This document shows positions 2,758 to 22,893 of a stretch of 64,000 nt of DNA, piece after piece. The DNA comes from Octopus vulgaris. Its lineage: Eukaryota. Under the pieces are notes generated by a model, which was not told the origin of the DNA, did not search any database, and saw only the letters and a list, made by a program, of their open reading frames with translations. Position 1 is the stretch's first letter, and each line of letters starts with the position of its first letter. The stretch is taken from positions 59,706,001 to 59,770,000 of the forward strand of contig OX597826.1 of the NCBI GenBank assembly GCA_951406725.2, given 5' to 3'. Position numbers and translations under genes: made by a program.

Positions 2758-4731
2758 TTTGTGTGTGTGTGTGTAAATCGCTACTTGCACCGTATCTAGA
2801 GGGGATATTTTCATATGTATTTTTAATATTGTTAATACCTCTTGGCAGGTCTCACGTAAAATATACTCATAGCTACAGTGTGCGTCGTAAGAGAATGACA
2901 TCACCCATTTTAGCGTGACAGTGTATGCACCACTCTTGGTTCATTGGTGCAGAGAGAGAATTCGGAGCCTTCAATAATTCATCATGTTGTGTCTCATCAG
3001 AGCTTTGAGCCTAAACCATTTGTTTATACTCTTAGGGATCAAATTGGTTGCCGATCGGTACTTATGCTTGCCAACGAATAAAAATTCGTTATTTACGACA
3101 TTTACAACGAGATGTGGAAAGAATATTAGCATATTTACTATCAATATGTCTTGGCAGGTGCAAACACAATACATATATATCAATGTTCCGCTTTTGCATA
3201 GCGTTACTATTAAGCTGGTGTTAGAATTAAGCATACATATGATTCGGAATAAAGCGAAAGTTGTGTAGAGAGCGTGATATGAAATTAAATAAATGACAAA
3301 AGGAAAGGGGAATCATGCAATGAAATTAATATTTTTACAGCTCTTTCAGCAAGATGTAGTGTTCTACACTCTAAGTACACTTCATATAGAGCAGAAACAG
3401 CCGTAAGCTAATGAAGGGTATTGCATAATTTTCTGTCCCTTTGTCATTTGTGTAATTTCAAATATATATATATATGTATGTATATGTATATGCTCGTATA
3501 TATATACATGCATACATACTCTCTTGTTGAAGTCGAACGAGCAAGGAACAATTAAAGACAGAATACAACAGATGCCAGAATATCTCTTTCTTAGACACCA
3601 AAGTGACAACAGTCTACCGTTGTGGGTTATATTTACCGTTCGTCTTGAAAATCTAAGAATGGTACCGAACAAGGCAAAAACACGAATAAAACATGAGTAA
3701 ACCATTATCCCCCTCTGAGAAATTCGAACACAATCCCCGTCTTTTACCCCATATATTTAGTTTATCATTTAATATATATTCCAGTGTATTTGGCATCTCT
3801 TAAGAAATCAGGACGTATTTTGAGATAAAGATGGTAAACAATCACATCTTTTACAGTCCCATCGCGTATCCACGAAGAAGCTGCATAACCGATTTCTGAA
3901 TACTCTCACTGAAAGCTAACCGGCATTCCTACAATGTCTCAATAAGACTCAATGATGTAAAAATTCCTCCACCTCTTCTTCTCCCGCTCTTATTTCTTTC
4001 ACAACCAAACTACCAATACTAAAACCTCTGCCGTCTTTTCATAGGCTCTCAGACATACGCTCTTGTGTAGTTTTCCTTATTTACGTTAAGTTTATTGTAT
4101 TCTGTACAGCTTGAAGCGAATTTGAAAACCGTATAGAAAACAACGAAAGTAAATAGTTTCATACACCCTGTCGAATGTTTACAGTTGAAAGCAGCAAACG
4201 CCGGTTTTCTTTAGTATTATATTAATTGAGCAAAAACACCAGCAAATATCATACATTGTTCGTTGAAAGCTGTAGATGTCACATGAGCGAAATTTTAAAT
4301 TCACCGTCTCGTTTAGCGCTGTGTTCGCCTGTCAAAATTTTTGTTGAAGAACAGCAGAACGGAAATTATGTTACAATCATGCAACTAGCAGAGTTCTTCC
4401 TAAGTATCTCTGCCAAAAGGCTAAAAGCAACGACAAATTGGTGGCTTGGATACCAAATGTTGCTGTTTTGTTTTTCTTTAGTGAGTTCTTCATAAAAATT
4501 TCTATAAGTTGATAAATGGAATAGAAACAAGAATTTGTATGTGTGTACTTGCACAAGCTTACATATGCAAGATATGCATATACAGCCACACTCACACACA
4601 GAAACACACTTATATACTTATATCTGTTTGTATTTGTACATACACGATACACACAGAGGCCTAAATCTGTTTATATATGTATGTATATATATTGTTTATC
4701 TTCGTCTTTTGTTTTTCTTTAGGTTTCAACT

Positions 4732-4762
<31 letters not shown>

Positions 4763-5565
4763 CACACACATACACATACATGTTTAGTGTATGTTTGTTT
4801 TATGTTCGTGTGGACTTTCGCGTGTTGTACCGAAATAGTTGTGAGGGTGCGGTGTACTCTATGTCCATTACGTTTCATTGTGAAATATTTAAATGCTACC
4901 TTTCTAATGGAACAACCGCCATTCATGTGTAGAAGAATATAAGTGAATATATATGTATGTAAGTGTAAATTACTCTGCATCGTATACATAAATGTATAAA
5001 AACTATACACACATGTATACATTCAATACACACACACACGTGTCTTGTCTGTGTGTGTGTGTTTTAAATTAAAATGGATCGCAATTACAATTTCTGAAGA
5101 AGAGTGCTGAGTAGTTCAAGCAACTATAATGTCAGGTTCATTGTATTGGCATAGACGTGGCTGAGTAATCTACTGACGTTTTTAATTCTTAGGCGGAATC
5201 AGCGCGGCACAACGTAGTAATTTAACAGACTTACATACAATTTGCATTTACCCAAATTCCACCCACGAGGTCTCGAGGTTAACAAAGTGTTACTTTCCCA
5301 AGACGACTGGCAGCGGATTCGAAACACGGAAAACACGCTTGCAAAAGGAACATGTCATTTCAGAGAGATTTGCGTGTCATTTCTAGACTAGTGAACGTCC
5401 ATACAGAAGCTCTTTGGTGGAGCTGCTTGTGGTGGTTCCTATCTGATATCCAATGTTGTTGAATCCACCTCAATGTCATTTGAACCATTCAGTATTCAAA
5501 ACCTGTTATATTGATTAATACTTCTGATTACATGAGATATGGAATTAATAAGAAAATATTATTTT

Positions 5566-5795
5566 AAAGCAATTGCAGCGGGGAAAGTGTTTATAAGCCA
5601 TTTAAGAAACACACAAAAACCGTTAGATTCACTTCAACATTTAAAATTAATTTGTCAAAATATTTTCGTCGCTTTGAGACCGCAAACTGTTCGCTGACAA
5701 AATTCTGTGCTGCATCTCATAAACACCTTCCTCGCTGCAATTGTTTTCGTTCCAGAACACGATCTCAGATCAGGTCACTTGCTATGCAAGTATAT
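5566..5795 (-). mobile_element. Penelope-like/retrozyme-like remnant with 29-bp inverted arms (5566-5594 / 5719-5747)
   Basis: AAAGCAATTGCAGCGGGGAAAGTGTTTAT vs ATAAACACCTTCCTCGCTGCAATTGTTTT enclose an HHR-like fold. Confidence 0.5.
5651..5701 (-). ncRNA. Putative minimal type I hammerhead ribozyme, G3-C8 core variant
   Basis: Minus strand: TTTGTCA GCGAACA GTTTGC-GGTCTCAAA-GCGAC GAAA ATATT T TGACAAA. 7-bp stem I, imperfect stem II, GAAA, palindromic AATATT stem III. Confidence 0.5.
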
Positions 5796-6540
5796 CTCCG
5801 TAATTATTTTAAAGATTGGTTTTTAATAAACTATCATAACAAAACAATTTTGAAGAAGAACAAGAAGTGCGTGATCATAATGGTGTGCAAGCAAAAATAA
5901 CGTAACAATAAAAAATTTATAAACAAAATGTATTGAAAATTTGCATATTTCCCTGCTGCGCCAGTTCCATGTAAATAATTCGCTCACAAACCTATATACT
6001 ATATTATATCAATTAAATATTAATAAAAACGAATTATATTTAATATAATAGTTTTGATTGGGCTGGGAGAAAAATCAGAAAGAAAGCCGAAAGACCTCAA
6101 CTACTATTTTTTATAAAAATTTTTTTTTTGTCTTTGAATGTCTGTTAGCAAGACTATGGGAAAGTCGTAGGAGTAGATTCTTCAGCTGGGCTTTGGAATT
6201 TAGCTGACTTTAATATGGAACTGACGAGCTGCTTGTACTATTTCTGATGTCAACGCAGCTTTTGTTGTTCTTGTGATTTAGTTAGATAGATAGATAGATT
6301 AGATAGATAGGTGGACAGAGAGGCGGACAAATAAATAGATAACTAGTTAGCTAGATAGATAGATAAATAGATGGCCTGACAGACAGCTAGACAGACAGGA
6401 AGATAGATAGAGGAATAGATAGCTAGATAGATAGAGAGCGAGAGAGAGACAGAGAGGGTGGAGATAGCATTGGTATGAAATTCAATAGCGAGACACAAAC
6501 TTAGAATTTCACTTTCAATATATAAACCACACCCAAGACT

Positions 6541-6935
6541 GCGAGCTGGCAGAAACGTTAGGACGCCGGGCGAGATGCTTAGTAGGATTTCCTCTGCCTT
6601 TACGTTCTGAGTTCAGATTCAGCCGAGATCAACTTTGCCTTCCAAAAGTTTTGGGGTCGATTAATTAAGTACAAGTTACGCACTGGGGTCGATGTAATCG
6701 ATTTAATCCGTTTGTCTGTCTTTGTTTGTCCTCTCTGTGTTTAGCCCCTTGTGGGTAGTAAAGAAATAGGTATTTCGTCTGCCGTTACGTTCTGAGTTCA
6801 AATTCCGTCGAGATCAACTTTGCCTTTCATCGTTTCGGGGTCGATAAATTAAAGTACCAGTTTCGTAGTGGAGTCGATCTAATCGACAGCCCCGCTCCCC
6901 AAAAGTTTCGGCCTTGTACCTAGAGTAGAAAAAGA
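6541..6935 (+). mobile_element. SINE group B, dimeric (6541-6768 and 6769-6935)
   Basis: Head GCGAGCTGGCAGAAACGTTAG, B-box-like GAGTTCAAATTCC, and core GCCTTTCATC..TTCGGGGTCGATAAATTAAAGTACCAG present twice. Confidence 0.8.
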
Positions 6936-22232: not shown

Positions 22233-22240
<8 letters not shown>

Positions 22241-22893
22241 GTTGTATACTGTCAATCTAACATGAACGTAACAGTAGGGGGGGGGGGGGTACACCACCGC
22301 TGTATAGCCCTAGGAATCACCGAACGCCTCCTGATGGCTTTGACACATTTTTCCCTGTGTCCTTATATACATTTACGAAAGGGAGACAAAGACCCCCGGC
22401 CGCCGAAGCTGCATCTAGGGACACGTGTTTCAGGATCATTGTCCTTCATCGGCCTAGAGTAGCAGACACCGGTCAGCTGGTGATATTTGTCTCGACTTCG
22501 TAATTGTATATATCTATAATTCAGTGATTATCAAAATAATTTCTTATTTTGATAATCAGTGAATAGACTTCACTGAATTATAGATATATACAATTACAAA
22601 GTCGAGACAAATATCACCAGCTGACCGGTGTCTGCTACTCTAGGCCGATGAAGGACAATGATCCGTGTCCCTAGATGCAGCTTCGGCGGCCGGGGGTCTT
22701 TGTCTCCCCTTCGTAAATGTATATAGGGACACAGGGAAAAATGTGTCAAAGCCATCAGGAGGCGTTCGGTGATTCCTAGGGCTATACAGCGGTGGTGTAC
22801 CCCCTACTGTCACGTTCGTGTTAGATTGACAGTATACAACCATTCTATCGCCCCACCACCGTACATGTCGCTACGAGAGATTTAGAAATTCAG

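Follow-up and report, generated by a model that had tools for sequence, protein, structure and literature searches.

A decayed ribozyme motif in the stretch of the Octopus vulgaris genome analysed here (64,000 nucleotides, hereafter the window) represents a natural variant of the minimal hammerhead of Penelope-like retrotransposons, in which the core pair C3-G8 is replaced by G3-C8 while the structure, as far as sequence comparison can tell, is conserved. We consider that the motif is a decayed copy of the hammerhead in the end repeat of a Penelope-like element, belonging to a lineage with G3-C8 for C3-G8, and that slow cleavage by the intact form likely persists, in a dimer and probably assisted by the protein that the element encodes. 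From the sequences and their analysis, we place the probability of this reading at roughly 0.65. It builds on the motif itself, the swap throughout its family, the link to an open reading frame (ORF) with reverse transcriptase (RT) and GIY-YIG, the anatomy of the insertion and the covariation between families. It is the 3-8 pair that defines the active fold of hammerheads, and altering one of its partners alone costs up to 10^5-fold (PMC8495972). The fold and the element class were already known and neither is changed by the finding, for which the window copy provides no more than a worn example.

On the minus strand, positions 5701 to 5651 of the window form a minimal type I hammerhead motif with a G3-C8 core, in a numbering assigned by analogy with PMC4209133. 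The 5′ strand of stem I (7 nt, 5695-5701) pairs with the 3′ strand at 5651-5657, and core positions 3-9 (5688-5694) read GCGAACA, with G3 at 5694, C8 at 5689 and A9 at 5688. An extra G, stem II and loop II occupy 5668-5687, followed at 5658-5667 by GAAA (5667-5664), the self-complementary stem III strand AAUAUU and U17 (5658). The predicted cut in this copy lies between 5658 and 5657. A first-pass annotation had proposed a hammerhead core at 5651-5701, with no strand given, in which positions 3 and 8 are swapped and G5, A6, A9 and GAAA are retained; each of these assignments holds on the minus strand.

Compared with the intact 51-nt form of the family, the window copy differs at three of 51 places, 5693 (U4C), 5686 (G10.1U) and 5684 (C10.3U), the last two of which damage stem II. 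Because of these three private changes, the stem II pair probabilities drop from about 1 (0.99-1.0 in intact copies) to below 0.1. The G10.1-C11.1 pair is broken, and U4, which the family majority keeps, is lost in the window copy only. The window copy of the motif is probably dead. The first-pass annotation had raised U4C, an imperfect stem II and a UUU cleavage triplet as caveats; all are present in the sequence, and the first two are indeed private to this copy, whereas UUU is found family-wide.

A relaxed descriptor that accepts any Watson-Crick 3-8 pair, written after the motif had been seen, matched the window twice (5701 to 5651 and 22414-22458), against a mean of 0.03 matches per shuffle in 100 dinucleotide shuffles of the window, and none of the 100 shuffles gave a descriptor match with a palindromic stem III. 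The isolated 51-mer of the window copy folds no better than its shuffles (z = −0.07). Rfam covariance models at E values up to 10 matched no hammerhead on either the window copy or an intact copy (L035), and an Rfam scan of the whole window returned no hammerhead, with only microsatellite-driven miRNA matches among the 150 listed of 380. The second descriptor match (22414-22458, minus strand) is another minimal type I hammerhead with C3-G8, U4C, a 6-bp stem I and a palindromic stem III. It sits in a long inverted-repeat insertion (about 22240-22860), the other arm of which lacks GAAA.

The G3-C8 motif belongs to a dispersed repeat of the octopus genome (2.8 Gb; 2983 candidates, 40 of them scored). 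Its intact form has the core GUGAACA and a perfect GUCGC/GCGAC stem II, in line with the consensus of G(U/C)GAACA and perfect GTCGC/GCGAC that the first-pass annotation had anticipated, and 402 exact 51-nt copies occur genome-wide, with 0 in the control. When positions 3, 7 and 8 were left free, the search gave 6259 matches (control, 0); by hand count, the first 100 listed comprise 90 with G3-C8, 4 with C3-G8 from another family and 6 with single changes. Among family copies picked by BLAST (n = 30), 27 carry G3-C8 and one A3-C8, and the core is deleted in the remaining two. A third sample was picked on a downstream 28-mer and consisted of 97 copies recovered around the first 100 of 3889 matches; 68 of them cover positions 3 and 8, with G3-C8 in 60/68 and C3-G8 in 0/68. 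Neither the BLAST sample nor the 28-mer sample was selected by the state of the core. Contigs of four runs with four organism labels showed, among the rows listed, no other letter at position 3 or 8 at the 3% level.

U4, G5, A6, A9, G12, A13, A14 and A15.1-U16.1 are the family majority, and the literal core CUGANGA is present neither in the family (GUGAACA) nor in the window copy (GCGAACA). The 7-bp stem I and 5-bp stem II of intact copies have pair probabilities near 1, and stem I is paired in 49/49 cells of seven family copies, as expected for the conserved stems on which the earlier proposal depended. Loop II differs among subfamilies, and the stems and core are constant. The same proposal had held that a double compensatory change is unlikely to come about by decay, and the data agree with it: G3-C8 is the state of the family, and homologous families have C3-G8 within the same stems. 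Judged by its distribution over the copies, G3-C8 is inherited from the master element and is no product of decay. One locus (L062, 1312-2459) contains five head-to-tail G3-C8 units with TA spacers, which would be a natural cis-dimer template if transcribed.

Homologous families extend this comparison. An older, decayed family has the core GUGACCA, that is, G3-C8 with C at the free position 7, and shares its stem II with the young family. Its stem I pair 6 is G-C where the young family has U-A, and its stem III strand is AAUU rather than AAUAUU; the stem III palindrome survives this two-base self-complementary insertion between the older and young G3-C8 families. In the older family, 102 of 161 stem I cells pair at the homologous register, compared with 71 at the next best register. 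The majority lines of the two families are identical at 36/38 constrained places versus 64/91 in the flanks (Fisher p = 0.002), for older-family copies that were partly picked on the core and stem II, i.e., on the motif itself. No ORF remnants were found beside this family in the 30 loci searched, and it is left only as decayed short, often palindromic insertions (L351-L358, L164-L185).

A third family, with the same 5′ strand of stem I, has C3-G8 in 51/60 matches, G3-C8 in 0/60 and single changes in 9/60, and ORF remnants 36-57% identical to the ORF of the element described below were found in 3 of 30 loci. In an older C3-G8 family (L236-L265, about 1490-1560), the stem I junction either contains additional bases or has an A-G mismatch. 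The young P0001 family is likewise C3-G8; its ORF is 54% identical to the element ORF and is placed as its sister (SH-aLRT 97) in a quick tree built from 46 proteins, which include 43 selected among the 119 further homologues listed. The P0001 copies (L193, L195, L196 and L204, about 4640-4700) are very young, being 99% identical with 1312-codon frames, and in their hammerhead-like core position 9 is C and stem III is not a palindrome.

Over 37 hand-picked rows, which are related and in which the 3-8 and stem II switches amount to about two events, the 3-8 pair is G-C in 26, C-G in 7, G-U in 1 and unpaired in 3, and one stem II pair is G-C in 18 and A-U in 8, the A-U occurring in the homologous families. 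The rows have an extra base between positions 9 and 10.1, and the G10.1-C11.1 pair is G-C in 35/37. The covariation between families comprises about four independent events. G3-C8 is likely derived, given that C3-G8 or U3-A8 is the state of published Penelope-like hammerheads. No lineage intermediate between C3-G8 and G3-C8 was found in the families of this genome that were searched; a G3-G8 intermediate lineage was considered and rejected, as the three such copies share no diagnostic changes. Other families with U3-A8 or C3-G8 minimal hammerheads are also present (the 3′ ends of L070, L073, L082 and L089; L159; L144; L183).

Beyond the first-pass annotation, the host of the motif could be identified as a Penelope-like retrotransposon. 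The link to a coding element comes from 593 motif copies that extend further upstream. An open frame of 1025 codons, whose stop lies ~1.0 kb before the motif, contains YVDD (residue 641), a CX3CX2C linker and GIY-YIG, the last recognized by PF01541 above the cut-off at residues 915-1005; Pfam RVT_1 gave no match to this ORF and matched P0001 only below the cut-off. In L147, the ORF lies between two motifs 4261 nt apart, and a frame that opens downstream of the first motif continues into the ORF N-terminus. The minimal type I hammerhead motif sits in the pseudo-LTR (pLTR, the end repeat) of a Penelope-like element whose ORF combines RT and GIY-YIG. A single ORF combining RT with a C-terminal GIY-YIG is the arrangement that distinguishes EN+ Penelope-like elements, and the protein has a CX2-5CxxC linker and CCHH in the endonuclease, which are Nematis/Neptune-type motifs. 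The copies form partial tandems, carry an inverted 5′-truncated arm as well as a tail at one of their ends, and sit in TA-rich targets, in agreement with Penelope-like elements as described in PMC8557442. Since eight other copies are 98.3-99.5% identical over 2 kb, the family moved recently.

The Pfam GIY-YIG search first gave an unrelated family with a U3-A8 motif, which is not the host of the G3-C8 motif. A U3-A8 hammerhead family of this genome stands behind a 781-aa RT and GIY-YIG ORF; the element ORF is only 23% identical to the 781-aa family, for which the label Neptune-like derives from the linker motif alone. Metagenome scans with the element ORF and with the motif gave no matches.

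The window insertion occupies 5570-5802 (233 bp) and is truncated, with an inverted arm, a tail and a 12-bp target duplication. On the minus strand, the leader (5702-5718) precedes stem I and contains the predicted 5′ end of the element RNA at about 5717, a putative start site, with an extra G at 5718. Downstream of the motif, 5570-5601 encodes the ORF start codon (5601) and the first 10 codons, and the same N-terminus runs into the ORF in L147. The copy stops there, at the first of two recurring 3′ ends of the family. On the plus strand, the inverted, 5′-truncated arm with its ~60-nt tail spans 5719-5802, and the target-site duplication (12 bp, beginning with ATT) lies at 5558-5569 on the left and 5803-5814 on the right. 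The anole element likewise prefers to cut at ATT (PMC11167929). A 32-bp inverted repeat at this locus suggested a MITE, a reading that was rejected, as the repeat is the inverted arm.

The ends of the short copies are informative about their RNA template. The 5′ ends of 48/97 copies cluster 9-18 nt before stem I, and only 6/97 extend further; among motif copies picked regardless of upstream sequence, 1/90 extends well beyond this boundary. The 3′ ends form two groups, separated by about 60 nt. These clusters fit an RNA that begins ~16 nt before stem I and is primed internally at two sites, a behavior shown for the anole element (PMC11167929). G precedes the boundary in 13 of the 23 copies reaching it; about half of these can derive from the inverted arm, and a cap-derived origin of this G is suggestive only. 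Two of the 97 copies map to the predicted cut site, and both are otherwise explained (an internal deletion and an overlap with the inverted arm); the insertions therefore seem to come from uncut RNA and carry no trace of cut RNA. The 5′ boundary could instead be a splice acceptor. Directly upstream of it are branch-like and pyrimidine-AG sequences, but the short copies share no common exon 1 and no spliced joint was found in the contigs, and we prefer a start site. In L094-L123, just upstream of position 1510, a branch-point-like sequence and a pyrimidine tract are followed by YAG exactly at the short-copy boundary, and a C/T change between subfamilies leaves YAG intact.

With a start site at the boundary, the element RNA would begin about 16 nt before stem I, which would place the hammerhead within the 5′ UTR, some 56 nt upstream of the start codon. 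In tandem copies, a second hammerhead would follow the 3′ UTR. The two motifs may pair through the AAUAUU palindrome to form stem III, enabling the cut after UUU, which would release a unit-length RNA (4261 nt in L147) and take off the cap. Reverse transcription on uncut RNA, from either of two sites just inside the ORF to the RNA 5′ end, would produce the abundant 150-210 bp copies, to which the window copy belongs.

Several observations count against a working ribozyme. The insertion ends carry no sign of cut RNA, short head-to-tail arrays are rare, Rfam models matched no hammerhead, and the covariation comes down to about four independent events. The predicted stem III duplex contributes only −0.2 kcal/mol. 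The C3-G8 sisters have core oddities of their own (C at position 9 in P0001, the stem I junction mismatch in the older family), which suggests relaxed constraint in the clade. UUU belongs to the slower NUH triplets. The same triplet is found in a published Penelope-like hammerhead of Crassostrea (PMC4209133). Mutating the hammerhead of the anole element left insertion in vitro unaffected (PMC11167929). An engineered C3G/G8C exchange partly rescued a Penelope-like hammerhead that requires the element's protein, which counts for activity (PMC11167929).

Much of this evidence would also suit a hammerhead-derived motif without useful cleavage, whose fold persists as a structure for protein binding or for the 5′ UTR/promoter, with G3-C8 fixed at a time when catalysis was dispensable. 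The lack of copies derived from cut RNA, the very weak stem III, the core departures in sister families, the ability of the anole element to insert in vitro without cleavage (PMC11167929) and the overlap of the motif with the predicted start site and 5′ UTR all speak for it. However, G5, A6, A9, GAAA, U16.1, a Watson-Crick 3-8 pair and the palindromic stem III are kept across families with flanks only ~70% alike, the sole changing core base is position 7, the free one, and compensatory pairs are not expected from promoter constraint. We regard loss of useful cleavage as unlikely, though a serious competitor to slow cleavage as a dimer.

An independent non-autonomous retrozyme or SINE of ~200 bp, multiplying via self-cleaved, circular RNA, would account for the predominance of short copies with a sharp 5′ boundary and for the array of five head-to-tail units in L062. 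The anatomy of the copies makes this highly improbable: the same sequence is joined to the coding element on both sides, the copies are not permuted at the cut site, and only three head-to-tail junctions of short units were found genome-wide, all with TA spacers. A head-to-tail satellite was rejected on the same three matches. Chance resemblance to a hammerhead in an AT-rich repeat, although compatible with the folding z-score near 0 and the missing Rfam match, is in practice refuted by the C3-G8 homologues with their compensatory changes, the position in the end repeat of a Penelope-like element and the 0.03 matches per shuffled window.

The metazoan Penelope-like minimal type I hammerheads (Cervera and de la Pena 2014, PMC4209133) share with the octopus motif the pLTR location, the extra base between 9 and 10.1, G10.1-C11.1, the palindromic stem III, the NUH triplet, and the U-rich upstream and AU-rich downstream sequences. 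The AAUU and U17 arrangement of the older octopus family is that of the Crassostrea example, and the D. virilis hammerhead has an all-AU 6-nt palindrome like the octopus AAUAUU (PMC4209133). In contrast to the G3-C8 of the octopus family, the 56 representatives in Fig. S3 of that article show C3-G8 or U3-A8, and the parts of its text available to us name U3-A8 as the only covariation and list no cephalopod. Natural U3-A8 variants (Perreault 2011, PMC3088659) are also natural covariation at this pair; C3-G8 to U3-A8 takes two transitions with a wobble intermediate, whereas C3-G8 to G3-C8 takes two transversions. Engineered C3G/G8C hammerheads (PMC11167929, PMC8495972, PMC3884650) have the same swapped pair but are laboratory mutants, whereas in the octopus a family of thousands of copies carries the swap naturally.

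Among characterized elements, the PAc Poseidon element of Anolis (PMC11167929) resembles the octopus element in that its hammerhead is close to where the ORF starts, its 3′ ends recur at two places with a tail between them, the target has ATT and the main template is uncut RNA. The octopus element differs in having an ORF that begins about 56 nt past the cut site, a tail of about 60 nt and a protein whose CX3CX2C linker is of the Neptune/Nematis type as described in PMC8557442. Non-LTR retrozymes (bioRxiv 10.64898/2026.07.22.740005) likewise consist of short hammerhead-bearing units from pLTRs; they are defined by tandem arrays, whereas nearly all units of the octopus family are dispersed, and the family is linked to a coding element.

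More tentatively, the conservation described above may reflect a natural, catalytically active hammerhead lineage with a reversed 3-8 pair, kept by selection across several subfamilies of a still-mobile retrotransposon and undescribed in print; on sequence evidence, we hold this fuller claim to be possible, with the balance somewhat against it. The survey of Lunse from 2017 reportedly covers about 150,000 hammerhead variants. In the literature searched, G3-C8 appears only in engineered form; the accessible portions of PMC6765202, PMC6155905, PMC11014351, PMC10085705, PMC7151607, PMC6962438 and the PMC8557442 supplement contain no natural case, and Lunse 2017, Hammann 2012, Seehafer 2011 and Przybilski and Hammann 2007 may hold examples.

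The presence of natural G3-C8, sister C3-G8 and U3-A8 families in one genome provides a test of how ribozyme cores cross inactive intermediates, and the same set of 3-8 states bears on whether Penelope-like elements need the hammerhead at all. It also exposes a blind spot of descriptor and Rfam searches, which amounts to at least several thousand motifs in this octopus genome. An active lineage would have crossed a two-transversion valley, its motifs would escape CUGANGA searches, and thousands of motifs would be missing from the hammerhead counts for animal genomes. Elsewhere in the window, a common dispersed repeat, which we take to be a probable SINE, occurs twice in direct orientation at 6587-6886 (~115 bp each, 185 bp apart).
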